This document shows, in pieces, positions 49 to 20,970 of a stretch of DNA of 44,537 nucleotides (its first letter is position 1; every line of letters begins with the position of its first letter). The notes under the pieces are model-generated. The model was not told the origin of the DNA and made no database searches. It saw only the letters and a program-made list of their open reading frames with translations. The stretch is from an uncultured delta proteobacterium (lineage in GTDB: Bacteria; Desulfobacterota; WTBG01; CAIYCZ01): the NCBI GenBank assembly GCA_963803975.1, contig CAWDOY010000052.1, forward strand, positions 1 to 44,537, in the 5' to 3' direction. The position numbers were made by a program, and so were the translations under genes.

Positions 49-3000
49 ATGATGAAAAAACTATGGCTGATTCTATTTTGTTTAAGTATAGCACTGTGCT
101 TTGCTCATTCCAGCTATGCATATGAAAACGTTCAGGATTGTTTAACATGCCACCCTGAAGGGGCATTTGGTGCAGCAACACCTCCTCAACTGCATGGCAT
201 AAGTGCTCATACAGCCAACTGTGCAAATTGTCATCCTGGTGGCGTACCTGGACAGAATGTAACACCGAGTTCCTGTATAGTATGTCATCCGGCAGGGAAC
301 CTGGACTCTGTGCTCTCATCAATGCGCAGCCATCCCATGGCAATTCATGTCTGTCATGTCATTCTGAATGTACTCCACCAAGCACTACTACCACAATACC
401 AACCGGTACTACTACAATACCAGCAAGCACTACTACCACCACACCTGCCGGCACTACTACAACTACAATGATAATACCTGGAGGCACTTCTGCTCTCACA
501 TTAAGTGATATGGCGCTGCCGTGCGCTCTTTTGGCGCATCAGCAGTCATGCCGATACTCTGACCAACACAGCCGGTGCAGCACCCAATATTGCCGGTGTG
601 AGCACGGACATCACGTTTGATGACAGTTATTTAGATTTCACCGGCGCAACCGTCGGGCCGGCCGGCTCAGCAGTGGGTAAAACTGTTTCATTCAACCTGC
701 TGTCACCCGGCGTGGTGCGTGTCGGCGTATTTACCGAAGGCAACACCACCCCCATCGGCGATGGCGTAGTGGCCTATGTAAATTTCACGATAAAGAAGAA
801 CCCGGTAGGCGGCGTAGACCTGACCAACCTGTGCAGCGCATCTGACCCGGCAGGAAACGCGTTGGGGATCGCCTGCGTGTCAGGCAGTTTCTTTACTGCC
901 AAGACCGCTGACTTTAACCTGGACGGCGTAACGTCCATTAACGAAATACTGATGGAAGTGAGAATGTTTCTGGGGATAGACCCGGTCGATCCCTTAGGTG
1001 ATCCAACCGCAGACAACAAGGTTTCGATTGATGATGTGATCAAGGCCATCAACTGCTTCTTAGAGACCAAGGAATGTGCCTGCCCCACGGTTGACGTGAT
1101 ACCCCAGGAAGAGCTGTGGAAGGAATCCGGCCATGCAGACACTACCGCGATGGCCTTCAACGACTGGAATGAATGTACTCCTGTACCCCCAGCCACTACC
1201 TGTACCCCAGCGGTTCCTGTCGGCTGTGCCAAGTGCCACAGCACCCCGGGCTACCTTGACTACCTGGGCGCAGACGGCACCGCAGCCGGCGTGGTAGATA
1301 ACCCGGCACCGATTGGCACGGTCGTCTCCTGCGAGGCATGTCATAATCAGAAGGCAAGCTGAGCTGACCAGCGTGGTGCTGGAGTCCACCGGTGATACCG
1401 GAGCGGTTCCCCCGATTGCCAAGATTACGCTCACGGGCCTTGGTAAAGAAGCGCGCTGCATGGTATGCCATCAGGGTCGCGCATCAACGGATACCGTGAA
1501 TATATACATTGGAGGCAGACCGCTACTGGCAGGAGACCCTGATGCGGTGGATAGCGGCGCATCGTTTAGGAACATCCACTACTTTGCAGCAGCAGCAACC
1601 CTGTACGGCAACCAGGCAAAGGGCGGCTACCAGTATAGCGGCAAGGTCTATGATGCCAAGTTTGCCCACGTGGAAGGCTATGACACCTGCATCACCTGTC
1701 ATGACGCGCATTCTCTGGAACTCAAGTATGACAAGTGCGTAACCTGCCATACCGGCGCCACGGACAAGGCAGCCCTGAAGAATATCCGCATGAAGGGCTC
1801 TCTGGAAGACTATGACGGCGACGGCAACATAACCGAAGGTCTCTACTATGAAGTAGACGGCCTCAGAGCCAAGCTGTATCAGGCTATCCAGGCATATGCT
1901 ACAAACGTGTCAGGTAAAGGCATTGTGTACAATCCGGCAGCAAACCCCTACTGGTTTGTTGATGACAATGGCAATGGTGTGGCAGATCCAGCTGAAGTCA
2001 CCCGGTACAATGCCTATACCGCGCGCCTGCTGAAGGCGACCTACAACTACCAGGTATCAACCAAGGATCCTGGTTCCTATGCGCACAATGGCAAATATAT
2101 CATCGAGCTGCTGTATGACTCGATCGAAGACCTGAACGCAAAGCTCTCCACCCTGGTACCATCAGCAGACGTGAGCCTTGCCGGCTGCAACCGGGTAGAT
2201 GAAGGCCATTTCAACGGTGCTTCCGAGGCCTGGAGACACTGGGATGTAGCAACTGCTCCGGCACTGCCAGGGCCTCCGGGTTCCTGCGCCAAGTGTCATG
2301 CAGGCCAAGGGCATCCCGTTCTTCCTGACCAACAATGTCAACATCCAGGAAGAGCCGGCTAACGGCATGCTGTGCTTGAACTGCCACACCAGTGTAACCG
2401 ACACGGTTGCACCGCGCCGTGCAGTGAAAGACGTAACCTTCCCCTCAGGGTTAAAAGCCAATATGGGTGGTGCAGGGGCAACTGACGACAGCAACCTGTG
2501 TCTGCTCTGTCACCAGGGCCGCGAGTCCAAGGTGAGCGTAGATACCAAGATTGCAGGTAGCGCCGGCCCGTACTCTTTCACCAATGTGCACTATTACGCA
2601 GCAGCAGCATCGCTGTTTGGCACGCAGGTGCAGGGCGGCTACGAGTACGCGGGCAAGACCTATGCCGGTCAGAACCCGTTCACTGCTCACGGCGGCAAGT
2701 TCAATAAGTGCGTGCAGTGTCATATGGGCAGTGACGGCCTGAATGCGTCGTACGCGTCGCACCGGGTAACCAAGCCCAACCCGAACAACTGCGTATGTCA
2801 CGCTGGTGATGTGTCGCAGACCGGCACCTTTGAATTCGCTAACATTCGCCCGGCCACAGGATTTGGCAGCACTGACTTTGACGGTGACGGCAATGTGACC
2901 GAGTCGATAAAGAGCGAGATCGAAGGGCTGGAAGATACTGTATACGCAGATTCGGGCGTACTCAGCCAATCCGGCAGGCTTCAACAAATTCATTGCCTAT

Positions 3001-3241
3001 GATGGCGCTGCGTACCCGTACTGGTTTGAGGATCCCAACAACAACGGTATCCATGATGCTGGTGAAGCAACATCCTTCACGAAGTTTGATGCAGCGTTGT
3101 TGAAGGCAGCCTACAACTACCAGTTCAGCAAGAAGGAGCCGTGTGGCTTTGTTCACAACTCGCTGTACGTTGCGCCAGTGTTTAGCTGACTCTACCATAG
3201 ATAGTCGGCGGCACCGTGCCGAACACGGTATCTGGAGGTAA
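49..3241 (+). CDS. Large secreted multiheme c-type cytochrome (~14 hemes) with Thr/Pro linker, cohesin-like and dockerin-like domains; reconstructed across several frameshifts
   Basis: Signal peptide MKKLWLILFCLSIALCFAHSSYA; 13 CxxCH motifs plus one CxCH across ORFs 49-471, 228-620, 505-1362, 1313-2362, 2298-3002 and the tail YDGAAYPYWFED...KAAYNYQF ending near TAA 3239-3241; internal duplication; terminator follows. Confidence 0.8.
375..470 (+). repeat. ACT/ACC-rich low-complexity stretch encoding a Thr/Pro linker
   Basis: PPSTTTTIPTGTTTIPASTTTTTPAGTTTTT in ORF 228-620; repeated cactactacca units. Confidence 0.8.
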
Positions 3242-6313: not shown

Positions 6314-7914
6314 ATGAAAGACAGCTATGACGTAATTATCATCGGTGCCGGCATGGGCGGGCTCACCTGTGGTGCATGGCTTACGCACATGGGAATGAAG
6401 GTTCTTGTGCTTGAGCAGAATACACAGGTGGGCGGCTGCTGCTCAAGCTATAAGCGCGAAGGATTCAACTTCACTCCTGCCGCATCCATCATAACCGGTA
6501 CCACAAAAAAAGACGGCGTGTTCGAGCGGCTGATAAACAGGCTGGGCATCACCATTCCATTCATTCCGCTTAATCAGGGCTATCATGTACATTTGCCGGA
6601 CTTTGACTATTACCTTTACTCAGGCGGCGAGCACGCGCGCGACCAGCTGATCGAGCAGCTCATGCGGATTTTCCCCCATGAGGCGCAGGGCATTAAGGCT
6701 TTTTTTGCAAAACTGGGAAAGCTCTATGCGGAGATGGAGTATGCCACTTTCTTCGGCACCGGTCCGCGGGATATTGCCCGCATTCTGCTGAAGTGCCGGA
6801 CACTGCTCTTCAACATGGGCAAGGGAATCCTGCCGTTTGTGGACGACTTTGTTAAAGACCCGAAACTCAAAACCGTTCTGTCTATCAACTCAACCTGCTG
6901 CAACCTCCCGCCGTCACGGATGTCAGTGCTCGGGATCGCCGGCCTGCTGCTCGAGGGCGGGCTCTCAAATCCCCATGTGAAGGGCGGCGCGATTGCAGTG
7001 CCTGAAGCTTTTGCTCAATACATCCGCAGCAAAGGGGGCGATGTTGTGCTTGGCACGCAGGCGGAAAAGATTGTTACGGATAACGGTACTGCAACCGGCG
7101 TCCGCGCAATAAAATCCCCGCTTGCTCAGGAACAGGGATATAGCCAGGGCATAGCAGATATCCGGGAATTCAAAGCAAAATACATTGTTTCCAACGCTGC
7201 TGCCCGGCAGACGTTCATGAAACTTGTCGGCGCTGATAAACTTCCTGACAAGTTTACCAGCATGCTTGGCCGCCAGGAGCCAACCCCGCCATTCTGCGCG
7301 CTGCTTCCTCGGGCTCGATATGGATTTAAAGAGCATGGGGATTTATTCCCGCCCTGCATATTTACAGCTCAACCTATGATACTGATGAGCAGTTCAGAAA
7401 TGTCGAGGCAAAGATTTTAAGTGAAAACGGTCCGGCCCCGTTTTTCCGGTTCCAGCTTGCACCGTTAAGCGATCCAACCTCCGCCCCGCAGGGCAAGACC
7501 GCGCTGGTTATCCATGCGATACCTGCTCCCGTTACCGGCTGGGAAAATCCGGATTTTGAGAAAAAGGTTGCTGATGTCATGATCAGACGGGCGGAAAAAA
7601 TAATCCCCGGACTTTCTCAGAAAGATCATGTACCGGAATTCTGGTCACCAGCTACCATGAACAAATACCTGATGTGCGGGGCTGACGCGAGCATGGGCTG
7701 GGCGCTCACGCCGCAGCAGGTGGGGCCGAAACGGCTGGCGCAGAAGACACCAATTAAAAATCTGCTCTTGAGCGGCCACTGGACCGCGCCGGCAGTGGGC
7801 GTGATGTCAACCGTGGTATCCGGACTGCAGGCGTCAGGGATGATACTGAGGTCAGAGGGAGTGAAAGAGCCTCTTGCGGATATCGGCATCAGGCAGGGAG
7901 TTGTGATGTCGTGA
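6314..7914 (+). CDS. Phytoene desaturase / retinol-saturase-like FAD-dependent oxidoreductase (frameshifted near 7300 and 7620)
   Basis: YDVIIIGAGMGGLTCGAWL..VLEQNTQVGGCCSSYKREGF; SDPTSAPQGK in the middle frame; C-terminal KTPIKNLLLSGHWTAP.GV..V.SG. Confidence 0.8.
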
Positions 7915-7983
7915 TAACCAGGATTGCGGCAGCTCGTCAAAAGACGTAAGGCTTTACTAACAACTACATAACAGGGGGTTACA

Positions 7984-9385
7984 ATGAGGCCAAATCAAAA
8001 AAACAGGCAGCGTGATGACAGCACCATTGACAGCAGCAGGAGAGGTTTTTTAAAGACCCTTGGTATTACAACCGCTGGCTTAACGACTCTTGGTCTGACC
8101 GATGGCTTCACAGCCACTGCGCAATCGCAAACCGGTTTGAAAGCCCTTGCCGGCGGGCCGGGTAATTTCATGGATGAGTGGTACTGGCTCAAGGTGCGCA
8201 TGCAGTTTGTTTTAAAGCCTGATTTAATTTATTTAAACACCGGTACCGAGGGCGCGATGCCCCGGATTGTTCTGGATAAAATGCGCGATTATTTCAGGCA
8301 GTTTGCCGCCTTCCCGTATGATGCCATCGTAAACGACCCATGTTTGGGCGCAGGGTTGAGCAGGGAGATTGAGGCCCTTGCTGCATTTTTTGGCGCTGAT
8401 AAGGAAGAAATTGTCATAACCACTAATACCACCGAGGGCCTGGGCTGGGTTTCCAACGGTCTGGAGCTGGCAGAGGGTGATGAAGTGCTTTCCACCACCC
8501 AGTTCCGGCCTTACAGCTCCTGCTGGCAGGTGCTGATAGACAGAAAAAAAATTACCCTTACCGAGGTTGAGCTGCCCATTAAACCATCAAACAAGCAGGA
8601 GATCATTGACCTCTTTGAAAAAGCCATAACCCCCCGGACAAAAGTAATGACCTTCTGCCATATTAATTATACCAACGGGCTGCGCATGCCGGTCAGAGAG
8701 CTCTGTGACCTGGCCAGACAGAATGGTATTATAACGCTGGTAGACGGCGCCCATGCTCCGGGGATGCTGATCTTTGACCTGCATGAACTCGGGTGTGATT
8801 TTTACGCCGGCTCACTGCACAAATGGCTGTGCGGCCCTCCCGGGACCGGGGTCTTATACCTGCGCAAGGATATGCAGCACCTGCCTGTGGCCCACCGAGT
8901 GCGAGACATATACGGCAGGAGCAGGGACTATAATAAATTGTGAAAAATTCAATGGGCGCGGCCAGCTGATAACCCCGGCGATTGCAACACTGCTGGATGC
9001 GATGGATTTCCAGAATACTATCGGGAGAGATACCATCCAGAAACGGATTCTTGCCTTAAATAAGTACTGCAAAGAGAGGATCATAGACGAATGGGGCCCG
9101 GAAAAACTTTTATCGCCTGCAGCGGATAATGAAGATTTGTGCACCGGCCTTGTTGCTTTCAATCCGTTTGAAACACCCTATGCAACGCAGCCTAATAAAA
9201 TAAGTGCGGTTTACAAGGCGCTGTATAAGAAAAAAATAGCGGTAAGAACTATCGGGTATAAGGAAAAACATGCGGATGAAAAACCCATTTCAGCGCTGCG
9301 CATTTCAACGCACCTCTATAATAACTACGAACAGATTGACACCGCGATAGAGGAAGTAAAAGAGATTATCAAGACACTGCAATAA
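7984..9385 (+). CDS. Tat-exported PLP-dependent aminotransferase class V (CefD/C-DES/EgtE-like C-S lyase family); frameshift near 8885
   Basis: Twin-arginine SRRGFLKTLG; YLNTGTEG, TTNTTEG, DGAHAPG, GSLHKWLCGPPGTG (PLP Lys), RISTHLYN. Confidence 0.85.
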
Positions 9386-9415
9386 ACAACCACAGTGTTA
9401 AGAAAGGAGATATGC

Positions 9416-10234
9416 ATGAAGCGAACATCACGGACGATACTGTTTGCAGCGGTTCTGCTGCTGGCTGCCGGTACCCTGGGCGGCTGTCTGTCGGAGGACC
9501 AGCTTATTACCTATGATGAGCTGAAGGCCCTGATTGACGACAATGCCGCCATGGAAAACACAACCATTGTAGATGTGCGGTCAGTTGCGGCATGGAAGGA
9601 AGGATATATACCGGAGGCTATTAATATTGAATATGATGCGGTGCTTGACGCCTTCGGCGGCCTAAAAGACGGCGGAGCAGCGCTCACTTCAATCGTTACC
9701 AATAAAGACGGCACACTGGTCATTTATGGAACGGGTACTGATAATGCTTCGCTGTTTGCCGCACGGGCCATCCAATCAGGTTATACGGATGTAAAGTTCT
9801 ATCAGGGAGGAATGGCCGACTGGCGGGAGAGCCACGGGGACTATTTGTATATAAACTATGAGGGATTCAGACAGTGGTATGATGCCGCGTGCCCTTTCAC
9901 AGACGGAGAGAACTATCTGGTCGATGCGCATCCCCCGAGCCTGTACACGGATTACGGCCATATCCCGGGCGCCATCAATATCATGAGCAAGCATTTTACC
10001 TTTCTTGACCCCGGCAGCTTAAAGCCGATAACGGATTTTATTTCCAACAGGGAAGCAAAGATTGTCTTTTATTGCGTTAACTATACCTGACCGGCAAGCC
10101 GCAAATCGGCACGTGATGCCGTATCGCTTGGCTATACCAAAGCCTATTCTTTTGTCGGCGGCTGCCAGGATTGGAAGGCAGAAGGAAACACGCTGTATCA
10201 GGGAGAGGATAAAGGCTCCTGCGCTGAAAAATAG
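9416..10234 (+). CDS. Tandem rhodanese-domain lipoprotein, predicted selenoprotein (TGA 10088-10090 = Sec, motif YCVNYTU)
   Basis: AGGAGA RBS; lipobox LGGC; two rhodanese domains; the frame continues past TGA as PASRKSARDAVSLGYTKAYSFVGGCQDWKAEG, completing the second rhodanese fold, to TAG 10232-10234. Confidence 0.85.
10095..10130 (+). promoter_or_regulatory. Candidate bacterial SECIS element for TGA 10088
   Basis: Upper stem CGGCA-(CGTGA)-TGCCG at 10107-10121, lower stem CAAGC/GCTTG; loop begins about 21 nt after the UGA and has G at its second position. Confidence 0.65.
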
Positions 10235-10269
10235 TTGATCCCATGTACCACAGATATGGAGAGAGAGCT

Positions 10270-11593
10270 GTGCATAGCTTCTATATTTTAATGGTGTGCC
10301 TGCTGTTGCTTATCCCTGCCTGCAAGCCGGTCCCGCAGGACACTCTGACGCTGCTCTACACCAGCGACACAACAGGGGAGATTGAGCCCTGCGGTTGAAA
10401 CTCAAACCCTTTAGGGGGGCTTGCCCGGCGGGCAAGCTATATTAAATCCGCGCGGCAGTCAGAAAAAAATGTTCTGCTGCTTGATGCCGGCAATGTTTTC
10501 GGCTATCCCGGCGTGCAGTCACGCCTGAAGAGTGAAACTGCCGTGGAAGCCATGTCCCTGATGTCCTATGCGGCGCTCAATATCAGCAACCTTGAGTTCA
10601 GCTTTGGCCTTGATTTCCTTCGTGATACCACACAAAAGTTTCAGATACCAACCCTCAGCGCCAATATTGTCTATGAAGACACCAATGAACCAATAACAGA
10701 AGCAGCCCGTATTATTTCATTCGATACTTTCACGGTGGGCATCACCGGAGTTGTCGGAAAAAAATATGAAAAAATCATTCTGCAATCCAATGCGGAAAAT
10801 GCCCGGCCGGTAAACGTGCTTGATGAAATGACCGCACTCCAGCAGCAGGTTGATGCCATCAGAGGCGCTGTTGACATACTCATAGTTCTTGCCAATGCGG
10901 GCGTGGAGCGCGCCAAAGAAATCGCACAGCAGATATCGGGGATTGATGTCATCGTCTGCGGGCACGGCGCTGATGAAATAAAGGCGCCCTACTTTATCAA
11001 TGGCGTGTACGTCGTTAAGGCAGGCTACGATGGGACCAGCATCGGAAAGCTGGCGCTCTCTCTTGACCGGAACAATAAAATTATCGACGCGCAGGGAGAA
11101 GTCGTCACCCTCGAGAAAGATATTGACGAGGACCAGGAGATGCTCGGACTTCTTGACGCCTACCATAAGAGCCTGAAGGAGCACGCCGACGAGCTGTTCA
11201 CCGGCGAACAGAAGCCGCCGTCTTCCGGCGGCTCATATGCGGGTTCGGCCCAATGTGCAGGCTGCCATCCAGAGCCAGGCGCAGCAGTGGAACACTACCG
11301 GCCATGCGCAAGCCTTCAGCTCCCTTATCGTAAAAAACCAGGATTATAATCCGGAGTGCGTAATCTGCCACGTGACCGGATTTGGTTATACGGGCGGCTT
11401 CAAGCGGCCGGATCAAAGCCAGGACCGGGCCAATGTTCAGTGCGAAATGTGTCATGGGGCCGGAGCGGAGCACGCGGCACAGCCGGCTCCCGGTTATGGC
11501 GCGATTTCAGCGCTTATCTGTATAAACTGCCACACCAGCGACAAGAGCCCGAACTTTGATTACGCAACGTACTACCCGAAGATCAAACATTAA
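10270..11593 (+). CDS. UshA/5'-nucleotidase-fold lipoprotein fused to a C-terminal tetraheme cytochrome c; predicted selenoprotein (TGA 10396-10398, motif EPCGU); frameshift near 11270
   Basis: GGAG RBS before GTG 10270 (alternative ATG 10243); lipobox IPAC; LLYTSDTTGEIEPCG-U-NSNPLGGLARRASYI...LLLDAGN in frame with ORF 10513; hemes CAGCH, CVICH, CEMCH, CINCH. Confidence 0.85.
10419..10437 (+). promoter_or_regulatory. Candidate bacterial SECIS element for TGA 10396
   Basis: Perfect hairpin GCTTGCCC-GGC-GGGCAAGC with G-starting loop about 28 nt after the UGA. Confidence 0.65.
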
Positions 11594-11663
11594 CTGCAGG
11601 TACATATAGTACATTTTATCGGCTAAATGACCGGGCTTTTGATTTTAGAAAGGGGGATTGTAC

Positions 11664-12771
11664 GTGAAAACAATAAAAACAATTTTACAAGTGAGCATTT
11701 TCCTTCCTGTTGTTCTTCTTGCAGGCTGCTCTGATGAGGTGACGCGATAAAATTGCTGCTGTTATTCATGACAAAGTTCTAACCGTCGATACCCATGTTG
11801 ATACGCCGCTGCTGCTGGTATCTGAAAATTTTGACCTGGGTATGCGGCATGAACCTAAAAAGATTATTTATAAACTGGATTTACCCCGCATGGAGGAAGG
11901 GGGGCTTGATGCGGTGTTCTTTGCCATTTTTGTCTTTCAGGGCCCTCGAACTCCTGAAGGCAATGAAAAGGCAAAGCAGAATGCCTTGAAAACCTTTACT
12001 GCCATTAAAGACAGTCTCGATCAAAATGCTGATGCCGCAGAACTGGCGCTGACGCCGGATGATGCCTACCGGCTGCAGCGGGATAAAAGGCGGGCAATAT
12101 TTATCGGCATGGAAAATGGGTATCCGGTCGGCACAGATCTCTCCCTTATACAGACCTATTATGAACTGGGTGCCCGGTATATTACCCTGTGCCACTGGGC
12201 AAACAATGATATCTGCGATGCCGCCACTGACCCGGCTGGCCCTGAGCATAACGGCTTGAGTGAATTTGGCAAACAGGTTGTTGCAGAAATGAACCGCCTG
12301 GGAATGATGGTTGATATCTCACACGTCTCCGACAAAACAGTGCTTGATGTGCTGGAGATGTCCACAGCGCCCATAATTGCCTCGCATTCGAGCGCACGCG
12401 CTGTCTATGAACACCCCCGAAACCTGCCTGATGAACTCCTGAAAAAGATTGCCGACAAGGGTGGTGTGGTGCAGGCAACCATAGAGTATGTGAAAGCTCA
12501 TGCCTCATATGAACGTCCGGAGCTTCCCACGGTGGCAGAGTTTGTTGACCATATTGATCATATTGTTCAGGTTGCAGGGATTGACCATGTGGGCATCGGC
12601 ACTGATTTTGACGGCGGCGGAGAGCTTGCGGACTGCTATGATGTGAGCGAAATGGGAAACATCACCCGCGAACTGGTAAAGCGGGGCTACACGGCTGCGC
12701 AGATAGAGAAGATCTGGGGCGGCAACCTGATGCGGGTATTCAAAAATGTTCAGGAGGCGGCAGAAAAATAA
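11664..12771 (+). CDS. Membrane (renal-type, M19) dipeptidase lipoprotein; frameshift near 11745
   Basis: GTG 11664 with signal and lipobox VLLAGC; VDTHVDTP, GMENG, ITLCHWANN, MMVDISHVS, ASHS, HPRN, HVGIGTDFDGG, IWGGNLMRV. Confidence 0.88.
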
Positions 12772-13140: not shown

Positions 13141-14470
13141 GGTGTATGAAAATGTCTGTGTAATACTGGATTAGATAAAGAAACTCAATCCATTAAACAG
13201 GAGGACTACACATGCCAATCAAAGACGAATCGTGCTTGATGAATTACTGAAGGAGTATAAAAATCCGGAAGACCTCATTGGGAAAGACGGCATACTGAAA
13301 CAGCTCACCAAACGTCTGGTAGAAAAGGCGATGGAATCGGAGCTGACCCACCATCTGGGCTATGACAAGAACAGCCCTGCCGGCAACAACACGGGCAATT
13401 CCCGTAACGGTAAATCCTCAAAAACCATCAAAGGTGATTTTGGCGAAATCCCCATAACGGTCCCCCGGGATCGCAACGGGGAGTTCAACCTCCAGATCAT
13501 AAAGAAGAACCAGACGCGTTTTGATGGTTTTGACGATAAAATCATTTCCATGTATGCCCGTGGGATGACCACCCGCGACATTCAGGCCCATCTGCAGGAC
13601 ATCTACGGTGTTGAGGTATCCCCCGACCTCATATCCAATGTCACTGATGCAGTTATCAACGAGGTCAAGGAATGGCAAAATCGCCCCCTGGCAGACATAT
13701 ATCCCATTCTGTATCTTGATGCCACGATAGTAAAAGTCCGCAGCGAGGGCCGTGTTATTAACAAAAGCGCTTATCTTGCTGTCGGCATAACGCTGGATGG
13801 CACCAAAGACGTGCTGGGCATCTGGCTTGAGCAGACCGAAGGAGCCAAGTTCTGGCTGAAGGTTATGACGGAATTAAAGAACCGGGGTGTGCAGGACATC
13901 TATATCGCCTGTGTCGATGGATTAAAGGGCTTCCCTGATGCCATAGAGGCCATGTTCCCTAAAACCGAGGTGCAGCTCTGCATCGTGCATATGGTCCGGA
14001 ACAGTTTACGGTTTGTCTCCTGGAAGGACCGCAAAAACGTTGCTGCCGATCTCAAGGCTGTTTACCAGGCTGCTACCGAAGAGCAAGCTCGGATGCGCCT
14101 TTCTGCATTTGCTCAGAAGTGGGACGCAAAGTATCCCACCATCGCAAAGTCATGGGAAGCAAACTGGCAGCGCCTGATTCCGTTTTTTGCCTACTCCGAG
14201 GAAATCAGGCGAATTATCTATACAACAAATGCCATCGAGTCATTGAACAACTCACTGAAAAAGACTATAAAAAACAGGGCTTCGTTCCCCAATGACGAGG
14301 CCGCTATAAAGCTTTTGTATTTGTGCCTTGAAAAATATTATGAAAAAATGGACAATGCCAGTACGAAATCTGGGGCACGGCTCTGAATCAGCTGGCGGTA
14401 CGTATATGCTGACCGGATGCCCATTTAATGAGCAACGGGAATTATCATTTACACGGAATCTCGATACTTT
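13141..14470 (+). mobile_element. IS256-family insertion sequence
   Basis: Transposase flanked by imperfect inverted ends GTATGAAAATGTCTGTGTAA (13144-13163) and TTACACGGAATCTCGATAC (14449-14467). Confidence 0.85.
13212..14428 (+). CDS. IS256 (Mutator) family transposase, frameshifted at both ends
   Basis: RNGKSSKT, VPRDRNGEF, YLDA, VDGLKGFPDAI, QLCIVHMVRNS, IYTTNAIESLN; RBS GGAGGA before ATG 13212. Confidence 0.92.
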
Positions 14471-19231: not shown

Positions 19232-19651
19232 ATGGATATATCGAAAAGAGATCTGGCGGAGAAGATACGAAGCTGCGGCCTGAAGCCGACTGCCCAGCGC
19301 ATAACTATCTTGCAGAACCTTGCCGTGCGCAAAGATCATCCCAGTGCTGATGCAGTGTATCGCTCGCTGCGGGACGAGCATCCCAGCCTGTCCCTCAACA
19401 CCATACACATGAACCTGGAGAGCTTCGCGGCAAAGGGGGTTATCCTCAAGGTCAATGTGCTCCACGAGTCCGCGCGGTTTGACGGCGACAACGGCCCGCA
19501 CCACCACTTTGTGTGTGTCCGCTGCAAAAAGATTATCGATCTGCATAACGTGAAAGTCCCGAAAATTAAAATCCCCAGGGAACTGGGTGCAGCAAAAATA
19601 TTTTATCAGCATCTGCGCATTAACGGAATATGTGAAGCATGTCAGGGGTAA
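19232..19651 (+). CDS. perR: Fur-family regulator, PerR-like
   Basis: GLKPTAQR, HPSADAVY, RFDG...HHHFVCVRCKKIID, GICEAC; upstream of rubredoxin/rubrerythrin. Confidence 0.8.
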   Translation: MDISKRDLAEKIRSCGLKPTAQRITILQNLAVRKDHPSADAVYRSLRDEHPSLSLNTIHMNLESFAAKGVILKVNVLHESARFDGDNGPHHHFVCVRCKKIIDLHNVKVPKIKIPRELGAAKIFYQHLRINGICEACQG

Positions 19652-19698
19652 AGACAGCAGGACCAAACAATCATTACTTAATCATGGAAGGGGGTAGT

Positions 19699-20004
19699 AT
19701 GAACAAACAGGAATTAGACCAGTTTTTAGAATTACACCAGAATATCGAGTGGCAGGAGGATACGGATGCCCTACTATTCCGGAATGCAAACCTGCCGTGG
19801 TATCAGGAAGAGACGCACCGGGCTACGCGGGTGACCATTGCCAAGCTGCAGGAGCTCACGCCGGATCAATTGCTTCAGGGTATCAACAAGGGGCTTGATG
19901 TGGAATGCATAACACGGATTACCGGTTATTTTGCCAAGACCCGGAGTTTTAACCCCGGCAAAACTGCTGAGCTTAAGGATCGCTACAAGCCAGCCATGGA
20001 ATAA
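19699..20004 (+). CDS. Small stand-alone protein carrying the NrdD (class III RNR) C-terminal glycyl-radical motif
   Basis: 101 aa ending ECITRITGYFAKTRSFNPGKTAELKDRY, matching the NrdD C-terminal RxxGY...FNxGKxxExxDR pattern; GAAGGGGG RBS. Confidence 0.75.
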   Translation: MNKQELDQFLELHQNIEWQEDTDALLFRNANLPWYQEETHRATRVTIAKLQELTPDQLLQGINKGLDVECITRITGYFAKTRSFNPGKTAELKDRYKPAME

Positions 20005-20085
20005 AACAGATTCTCTCAGACAGCAGAGCTCAAGAATCATTGTAAGATGCCGGCTGATTATTCACATCAAACAGCGGCACGAGTA

Positions 20086-20239
20086 AAATTGACAAAGTCG
20101 TAAAAGGTTCCCTGCTGTCATTGTGAGGAGTGAAACGACGAAGCAATCCAGGGAATTTCAGAAAGTTGTGAGATTGCCGCGCTTTGCTCGCAATGACAAA
20201 TTGTTCGGTTTTCGGCTTTTTACGACGTTATCAAAATTT
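20086..20239. repeat. MITE/REP-like composite palindromic element
   Basis: Outer IR TTGACAAAGTCGTAAAA / TTTTACGACGTTATCAA; inner TGTCATTGTGAG..GAAGCAATC / GATTGCCGC..CTCGCAATGACA. Confidence 0.65.
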
Positions 20240-20262
20240 AAAATATGAAAGGAGAAAGTAAG

Positions 20263-20373
20263 ATGAAGAAATGGAGATGCAGTGTTTGTGGATATGTTCA
20301 TGAGGGAGCCAATCCCCCCGAAAAGTGTCCTATCTGCGGAGTTCCCAAGACCAAGTTTGAAGAGATTTCTTAA
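20263..20373 (+). CDS. Rubredoxin-like small protein (36 aa; absent from ORF track)
   Basis: AAGGAG RBS; MKKWRCSVCGYVHEGANPPEKCPICGVPKTKFEEIS*. Confidence 0.88.
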   Translation: MKKWRCSVCGYVHEGANPPEKCPICGVPKTKFEEIS

Positions 20374-20397
20374 TTTCTACACGAAGGAGGATATTAT

Positions 20398-20970
20398 ATG
20401 GGTTTTAAAGGGAGCCAGACTGAAAAGAACCTGTTAGCTGCCTTTGCCGGTGAATCCCAGGCACGGAACCGCTACACCTATTTTGCCAGCGCGGCCAAAA
20501 AGGAAGGCTACGAGCAGATTGCGGCTATTTTTCTCGATACTGCTGAGAATGAAAAAGAGCATGCAAAGATATTTTTCAAGCTGCTGCAGGGCGGAGATGT
20601 TGAGATTATTGCCGCGTACCCTGGCGGCGTAATCGGCAACACGCTTGCTAATCTGAAGGCGGCTGCAGCAGGGGAGAATGCTGAGTGGACTGCTGTATAC
20701 CAGAATTTTGCCGAGACCGCCAAGAAAGAAGGGTTTGAAGAAGCATACCAGGCATTTACCTGGATTGCCAAGGTTGAAAAACACCATGAAGCCCGTTACC
20801 AGGCGCTGATAAAAAATATCGCGCAGGGAAAAGTATTTAAAAAAGATGCTTCCGTGCAGTGGCACTGCATAAACTGCGGCTACGTGCATGAAGGGAAGGA
20901 AGCGCCGGACAAATGCCCGGTCTGCCAGCATCCCCGGGCTTACTTTGAGGTCCTGGCGGAGAATTATTGA
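20398..20970 (+). CDS. rbr: Rubrerythrin
   Basis: [45 protein letters not shown]. Confidence 0.96.

Follow-up and report, generated by a model that had tools for sequence, protein, structure and literature searches.

MccSep/ExtKL (NF040886), described in 2026, is a Sec/Cys-heme polysulfide reductase of Geobacter (PMC13510729). Its heme 2 is ligated by His and Cys, and polysulfide reduction requires a Gly-Sec loop that a different domain brings to within 3.6 A of that Cys; the enzyme also reduces selenite (PMC13510729). That report makes no mention of UshA or c554.

Selenoproteins with a UshA-like domain have a longer record. A 'COG0737 UshA-like, CxU' selenoprotein was catalogued by Zhang and Gladyshev in 2008, among the commoner predicted selenoproteins of ocean metagenomes, with 76 sequences listed in the GOS table, and the authors drew attention to its want of an obvious redox motif; the supplement includes sequences reading PCGUKKNPLGGL (PMC2398784). 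The family is also listed in Table 1 of PMC13188914, and a second family of UshA-like (seleno)proteins with a CxxU motif is described in the same source. A literature search, mostly outside subscription journals, found no functional study of a UshA-like selenoprotein or of its fusion to hemes. An earlier reading of the locus described here, made from the sequence alone (the sequence-only reading), had noted that such proteins were predicted before, and the 2008 catalogue and the NCBIfam entry NF041198 agree with it. The second heme of cytochrome c554 is its active-site heme, and it is open in the related OcwA (bioRxiv 10.1101/641308).

Within a window of 44,537 nucleotides (the whole stretch of DNA analysed, from an uncultured delta proteobacterium) lies a gene whose predicted product joins a 5'-nucleotidase/SoxB-type domain carrying a Cys-Gly-Sec loop to a tetraheme c554-type domain (Table 1). 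It resembles MccSep as a putative periplasmic multiheme selenoprotein in which heme 2 (here by alignment to c554) lacks a distal His and a second domain contributes a Pro-x-Gly-Sec loop (PDGU in MccSep, PCGU here). MccSep, however, has five hemes, a C-terminal Ig-like Sec domain and a Cys ligand that lies 86 residues from Sec, whereas here there are four hemes and the Sec is N-terminal. Homology between the two was considered and rejected: only the heme modules align (hhalign 95%, a rough value, with 2 of 10 alignment rows being wrong ORFs), and NF040886 does not match the UshA-like gene. Neither NF040886 nor dsrA is found over cut-off in the genome (98% complete), and a link to MccSep or to sulfate reduction in this genome was set aside. 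By analogy the UshA-like protein may work like MccSep, although it belongs to a different family.

The UshA-like gene and its product

The program-made ORF track opens only at 10513, downstream of an in-frame TGA. The frame extends upstream to a GTG start at 10270 and a hydrophobic leader, after which it reads TSDTTGEIEPCG-TGA-NSNPLGGLARRA; with one base removed at 11269-11272 it runs through the heme domain to give a predicted protein of 440 residues. Annotation would miss the gene twice in the window, through the TGA and through the probable assembly frameshift. A GER-V reading frame ahead of the leader is retained in L043 and L046, and an intact single frame through the c554 domain is present in L042, L044, L046 and L013-L017.

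The sequence-only reading had followed the frame upstream through the TGA to a lipoprotein signal. The frame, the leader and Cys18 bear this out, but the lipobox IPA-C is non-canonical. Typical lipoboxes occur in the orthologues L013, L017 and L046, and L016 is without any; because the lipobox is non-canonical and those of the orthologues are mixed, export of the protein appears likely and its lipidation less sure. That reading's account of the gene is partly confirmed, the exceptions being a frameshift that it overlooked and its count of lost metal ligands.

Table 1. Features of the UshA-like gene and its neighbours; positions are those of the window.
Feature	Position	Strand	Basis
Tat-type class V PLP enzyme (C-DES/PvdN-like), split by extra base 8885	7984..9385	+	same cluster; conserved in L079
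Tandem-rhodanese lipoprotein, in-frame TGA 10088-10090 (FYCVNYT-U-PAS), likely partner	9416..10234	+	conservation, adjacency
Candidate SECIS of rhodanese gene; stem of 5 pairs with CGUGA loop, 21 nt past TGA	10107..10121	+	folding
Ribosome-binding site GGAGAG	10258..10263	+	sequence; precedes GTG start
Predicted export signal ending at Cys18 (IPA-C; Cys codon 10321)	10270..10323	+	sequence; orthologue leaders
5'-nucleotidase/SoxB-type N-domain, degenerate metal site	10324..11220	+	PDB sequence matches, fold searches, conservation
Cys41-Gly42-Sec43 motif; TGA 10396-10398	10390..10398	+	conservation; TGA/Cys codons in homologues
Bacterial SECIS-type hairpin; stem of 9 pairs with GGC loop, 28 nt past TGA	10418..10438	+	folding, homologue covariation
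Heme motif 1 (CAGCH)	11254..11268	+	sequence
One extra base breaking the frame, likely assembly indel	11269..11272	+	absent in 4/4 runs and L042
Rest of c554-type domain, motifs 2-4	11273..11593	+	Pfam PF13435, NF041198 416-519, fold, conservation
Heme motif 2	11357-11371	+	
Heme motif 3	11441-11455	+	
Heme motif 4	11519-11533	+	
Stop TAA	11591-11593	+	
M19 dipeptidase lipoprotein, split by extra base 11743	11660..12771	+	same cluster; L079 conserved, L078 remnant

Putative selenocysteine codon and SECIS-type hairpin

The sequence EPCG-TGA at 10384-10398 places a PCGU motif after the first strand of the N-terminal domain. Across 104 distinct loci the Sec43 column is occupied by TGA in 67 and by a Cys codon in 37; the closest Cys form (L013) is 45% identical, and a quick-version tree contains at least five, and likely nine, TGA/Cys switches. 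The TGA also persists in near-identical strains: it is present in all of L042-L046, and one contig of run X2 spanning 10010-10502 carries 11 differences, none of them in either this TGA or that of the rhodanese gene.

The perfect hairpin noted in the sequence-only reading is present, with 8 Watson-Crick pairs (10419-10437) and one additional G-U pair, and its spacing and loop match the consensus bacterial SECIS model (PMC13188914). As stand-alone proof of a SECIS it was ruled out: 449 of 1000 synonymous recodings also pass the hairpin rule that we scripted (hairpin 16-37 nt past the UGA, a G in the loop, and a loop of 3-14 nt, against 3-9 in a review), and 111 of 1000 have an equally long stem. 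Taken by itself the hairpin is weak evidence, and it is the homologues that lend it support. The rule holds for 53 of the 67 TGA genes versus 11 of the 37 Cys genes, and among 11 close sequences two-sided changes are seen in four of the nine pairs, a score that none of 500 shuffles reaches, in a test that the relatedness of the 11 sequences can inflate. The genome has selA, selB, selD and tRNA-Sec; selD itself contains a TGA, and selA is split in the assembly by a frame break near residue 50. The exchange of Sec and Cys, the covarying hairpin and the Sec genes uphold the earlier proposal of a hidden selenoprotein, and we infer that the UGA is recoded as Sec at position 43.

Family membership and distribution

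The gene adds a member to a family already catalogued as NCBIfam NF041198, 'UshA-like (seleno)protein' (UshA_like_PCGU). With a cut-off of 275, the intact copies L042, L044 and L046 score 318.8, 311.5 and 299.3, and the two pieces in the window score 208.9 and 99.1 separately. Five orthologues at the order or class level were also scored, of which one falls short at 271 and the other four pass. Because the second window piece aligns with model positions 416-519, the heme fusion already lies within NF041198, so the novelty of architecture that the sequence-only reading had implied falls away. NF049981, UshA-like (seleno)protein family 2, is related in its N-domain and matches at 60.3 bits, below its cut-off of 140 (model of 262 positions).

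Of 301 genomes of the phylum, 65 have NF041198 over cut-off and 157 have a match to it; for MccSep the figure over cut-off is 11 of 121. A profile search at E 1e-30 returns 7370 cluster representatives, among which there will be ordinary nucleotidases. In the quick tree the gene's subclade is distinct (98% SH-aLRT); it is marked by the loss of the metal-2 residues (see below), by His and not Cys as the last heme ligand, and by the cluster with the rhodanese selenoprotein. The source genome also encodes a Cys paralogue (contig C23, 35426-36673; L004, L039; 393.6 bits), which has an ELCGC motif and Cys, not His, at the last heme ligand position (VKCP). Cys members from Nitrospina (L119-L130) keep a D-D-H-H metal-2 set, and a DsbA-like gene follows in L119.

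Tetraheme domain and predicted structure

The heme domain matches cytochrome c554 of Nitrosomonas europaea (1bvb) with Z 12.8 and rmsd 2.2 over 122 residues at 30% identity, and like c554 it has four CxxCH motifs and three distal His. In 179 heme-fused members these are His345 (100%), His401 (99%) and His440 (62%), with no fourth; the His440 position is Cys in about 20%, which suggests a His/Cys heme in that branch of the family. Motif 2 aligns with the second motif of c554, and heme 2 is probably left open as it is there. Thr154-Pro155-Phe156 of c554 line the open face of heme II, and a mapping of the SPxF loop (S426-F429) onto them was set aside, the sequence alignments ending before the loop. 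Whereas c554 is a free electron carrier, the module here follows a CxU domain in the same chain and is predicted to be partly covered by it. Of the 104 locus members, 11 (this gene not counted) are complete without hemes, in a sample that favoured heme-fused ones, so the CxU motif does not need a fused heme.

An AF2 model of the intact copy L042 has a pLDDT of 96.4 and a pTM of 0.93, and its lowest internal block is the CGU loop (85). Among the structures listed in the fold searches none spans both the N-domain and the heme domain. For the Cys orthologue L013, each domain was entered as a chain of its own and the pair was predicted together with four hemes. This pair scores 0.66, against 0.01 for the best of three controls; in the calibration 116 of 157 solved complexes attained the mark, as did 2 of 215 mismatched pairs, figures that are only rough here. 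The calibration set had no ligands and used other alignments, and the L013 chains are halves of one polypeptide. Runs share at least 94% of contacts, with a partner pLDDT of at least 88. In the predicted interface residues 22 and 24-30 (the CGC loop) face residues 407-411 and the stretch 338-346, whose last residue is the leading Cys of motif 2; Cys26, the Sec equivalent, touches 408-409, and most of the tightest contacts involve the helix 279-296 near the linker.

In this prediction the Cys-Gly-Sec loop rests against the heme domain next to the heme-2 motif; because the prediction returns no iron distance, ligation of heme 2 is our deduction. The sequence-only reading had raised the possibility that CxU fills the former dimetal site, and the prediction puts the loop at the heme-domain interface instead. 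Its broader suggestion of a redox protein wired to a tetraheme domain is backed by conservation and by the predicted docking. Mean-field DCA over 306 rows (effective 198) gave no signal of inter-domain covariation, gap artefacts dominating.

Gene neighbourhood

The rhodanese gene ends 35 bases upstream of the UshA-like gene, and its own TGA lies in a CxxxxU loop of the second rhodanese domain, the first domain having no loop Cys. This position is Sec in L042-L046 and in genome G008 and Cys in G009. Of 21 genomes from the order, 3 carry a tandem rhodanese gene, in every case no farther than 4 kb from the UshA-like gene. Its SECIS candidate is weak, depending on the segment folded and absent from a 60-nt fold. 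The Tat-type PLP enzyme lacks the persulfide Cys of SufS, as do C-DES and PvdN.

A wider cluster is kept in G008, with genes for an FAD reductase, FdhD, an AOR, the Tat PLP enzyme, the rhodanese, the UshA-like protein and the M19 dipeptidase. G012 keeps remnants of the cluster, and G016 has none of it downstream (its contig starts just before the gene). In G012 the cluster, rhodanese included, has been deleted around a Cys-form orthologue (L078:7833-9305), with a remnant of the AOR N-terminus in frame before it and an M19 fragment after it. An operon common to the whole family was rejected: among 79 loci scanned, the rhodanese/PLP/M19 cluster occurs only in the gene's subclade.

A second ORF with at least four heme motifs lies within 3.5 kb of the gene in 14 of 39 loci, versus 190 of 5000 random places in the genome; the 39 were chosen from the phylum as high-scoring matches on long contigs, and kin among them are not independent. 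AOR-family genes are found in five of the 39, with one further remnant. No nucleotide-salvage gene recurs among 146 nearest neighbours scanned with Pfam (taken from the 208 ORFs around an initial 19 loci and the ORFs around a further 20).

Several other arrangements were seen at these loci. A recurring pair of cytochromes, one with 9 hemes and one with 16 and a NapC-like N-terminus, flanks one branch that spans several families of the phylum (L085, L091, L093, L098, L099, L105-L111, L116). In L109-L111 two members of the UshA-like family stand in tandem, one of them heme-less in L110 and L111. AOR-family genes directly adjoin members in L084, L086, L092 and L097, from two unrelated families, with a Tat Fe-S subunit in L092. 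In the window a Mutator/IS256 transposase (13232-14386) lies between the genes for the M19 dipeptidase and a C45 peptidase, which are adjacent in L046, and 19232-20970 holds a Fur/PerR regulator, a 121-aa ORF with only the C-terminal glycyl-radical piece of NrdD, and rubrerythrin.

Proposed function

Taking conservation, the predicted structure and the MccSep analogy together, we rate the chances as about even that the protein works in the periplasm as a Sec/Cys-heme oxidoreductase acting on S-S substrates. Among the 195 members with Cys or Sec at position 43, 97% retain Cys41 while the metal ligands come and go, and because the prediction puts the selenium residue against the heme domain, the protein likely makes or breaks S-S bonds with heme electrons. 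In such a mechanism a likely inactive 5'-nucleotidase fold would carry the Cys-Gly-Sec loop, which would sit against the open heme 2 of the c554-type domain. Of Cys41 and Sec43, one would bind the heme-2 iron and the other attack the substrate, in the manner of Cys239 and Sec325 of MccSep, and electrons would be exchanged with a sulfur-sulfur substrate such as a persulfide, polysulfide or disulfide, reduction being the more probable direction. The neighbouring rhodanese selenoprotein would deliver or remove sulfane sulfur, possibly supplied by the Tat PLP enzyme acting as a C-S lyase. The active-site proposal, CxU at an open c554 heme by analogy with MccSep, is concrete and testable for a family that has been listed for 18 years. 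The steady rhodanese neighbour, the multiheme and AOR genes nearby and the lack of a recurring nucleotide-salvage gene speak for this reading. Against it stand the heme-less members, the 84 of 195 members with a metal-2-type set, the flat inter-domain covariation, the restriction of the sulfur-handling neighbours to this subclade, and the lack of dsrA or MccSep over cut-off in the genome.

More tentatively, and at less than even odds, we suggest that the UshA-like family is a second Sec/Cys-heme class, independently built on a dead phosphoesterase scaffold and more widespread than MccSep, which in this lineage would form a periplasmic sulfane relay together with the rhodanese selenoprotein and the PLP C-S lyase. 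If the active-site proposal holds, an unrecognised periplasmic enzyme of sulfur redox chemistry, evolved from a phosphatase, would be present in many anaerobes and also in nitrifiers such as Nitrospina, which have the Cys form.

An alternative that we consider unlikely makes the CxU motif a DsbA/CcmG-like exchange site and the hemes an electron store, so that the substrates would be periplasmic proteins in need of reduction or repair, such as maturing multiheme cytochromes, and not a small sulfur compound. The multiheme neighbours fit such a role, as do the DsbA-like, AhpC/TSA and MsrB genes that adjoin some members, the existence of heme-less members and the presence of cytochrome c assembly genes. 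The loop, however, is predicted to lie inside the domain interface and not on a free surface, and the steady neighbour in the subclade is a rhodanese, not a thioredoxin-fold gene.

Quite unlikely, in our judgement, is a role in metal or metalloid handling, whether CxU, Asp33 and the rest of the metal site bind a soft metal or oxyanion (Hg, As, Se, W/Mo) that the hemes reduce, or the protein acts as chaperone for the metal cofactor of AOR-type enzymes encoded nearby; this estimate covers both variants. Asp33 and Asn75 are present in all nine subclade rows, AOR and FdhD genes belong to the cluster here and in L079, AOR genes stand beside members of two other families, and the selenite reduction by MccSep offers a parallel. 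Against this, no metal-resistance or tungstate-transport gene recurs among the 146 neighbours, and the window's AOR has no visible export signal, whereas the UshA-like protein appears to be exported.

An RNA run (X19) was considered as evidence of expression and rejected, the gene being present there only as contigs, which cannot show transcription.

Degenerate metal site of the N-terminal domain

The N-domain shares its fold with UshA, CD73 and SoxB, with matches to 3ivd (Z 35.6), 1ush (34.6) and 2wdc (33.3); in those proteins a C-terminal substrate-binding domain follows, and the c554 hemes take its place here. The replacements listed in the sequence-only reading (DxH>DTT, GD>GN, GNHE>SNLE, LxH>LAN) are all seen in an alignment with CD73. 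Its statement that only GH remains goes too far: by what we take to be the metal-ligand and catalytic roles of the CD73-equivalent positions, Asp33, Asn107 and His232 are canonical (3/7), and the equivalents of His38, Asp85, His118 and His220 are lost (4/7). Scores against hydrolase families are 97.7 for SoxB (cut-off 550), 60 for NadN (436) and 47.9 for UshA (600). The only Pfam match on the N-domain, a sub-threshold Flu_PB2, was discarded as spurious.

These positions were followed in the 195 members with Cys or Sec at position 43 (100% there by definition, six further rows without either having been set aside), in which Gly49 is invariant (100%). His is not among the five commonest residues in the column of the catalytic His118 equivalent, and five of the seven canonical residues are kept by only one member. 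A metal-2-type set (D/E75, D/E/N107, His209, His232) is kept by 84 of the 195, and its positions covary (DCA), so part of the family may still bind metal; in the quick tree the set is absent from several separate lineages, including the gene's own.

A residual hydrolase, in which a one-metal or metal-free SoxB/5'-nucleotidase reaction acts on an S-sulfonate or phosphoester and the hemes and CxU form a redox switch, is very unlikely. The intact fold (overall Z 33-36) and the covarying metal-2 set would suit it, and in human CD73 the loop that corresponds to the CxU loop here also carries a Cys pair. Yet only three of the seven canonical residues remain, the subclade is free to vary at Asn107 and His232, the catalytic His is missing from the common residues, the substrate-binding domain has been replaced, and the SoxB score falls far below its cut-off. 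For this subclade the earlier statement that the protein is not a nucleotidase finds support in the loss of the catalytic His and the exchange of the C-terminal domain.

Probable assembly frameshift

In the window the frame from 10270 contains heme motif 1 only and then stops (TAA 11347-11349), and motifs 2-4 sit in a different frame. The fusion to four hemes claimed in the sequence-only reading stands once one base at 11269-11272 is removed; as assembled, the frame reaches a single heme motif. One base at 11269 or 11272 is missing from the contigs of all four public runs compared over 9300-11700, which are close strains (95-99% alike) whose link to the source sample is unproven. In the metagenome locus L042 a single frame covers the whole protein, and the two pieces in the window are identical to it at 314 of 316 and 105 of 105 residues (419/421).

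Compared with L042, the window has single-base insertions at 7303, 7341, 7617, 8885, 11272 and 11743, across four adjacent genes, and selA (G000, C20) and one EF-Tu gene (G000, C16, 21368-22250) are likewise split in the assembly. An indel-prone assembly is the simplest reading of the extra base, and a likely one. A true pseudogene in the sequenced strain, with the extra base real and the cluster and selA decaying, is highly improbable: the four broken genes and broken selA, the descent of the comparison runs from strains not shown to be the source sample and the IS256-type transposase 1.6 kb downstream speak for it, but the breaks are nearly all single-base insertions, the EF-Tu gene is broken in the same way and the near-identity of the pieces to the intact copy gives no sign of decay.

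The many single-base insertions at 6314-12771 split genes for a CrtI-like protein, the PLP enzyme, the UshA-like protein and the M19 dipeptidase, and findings of split genes or frameshifts from the source genome warrant comparison with reads. At 505-3002 the window contains gene pieces for a cohesin-domain protein and a multiheme cytochrome that are probably indel-split too.
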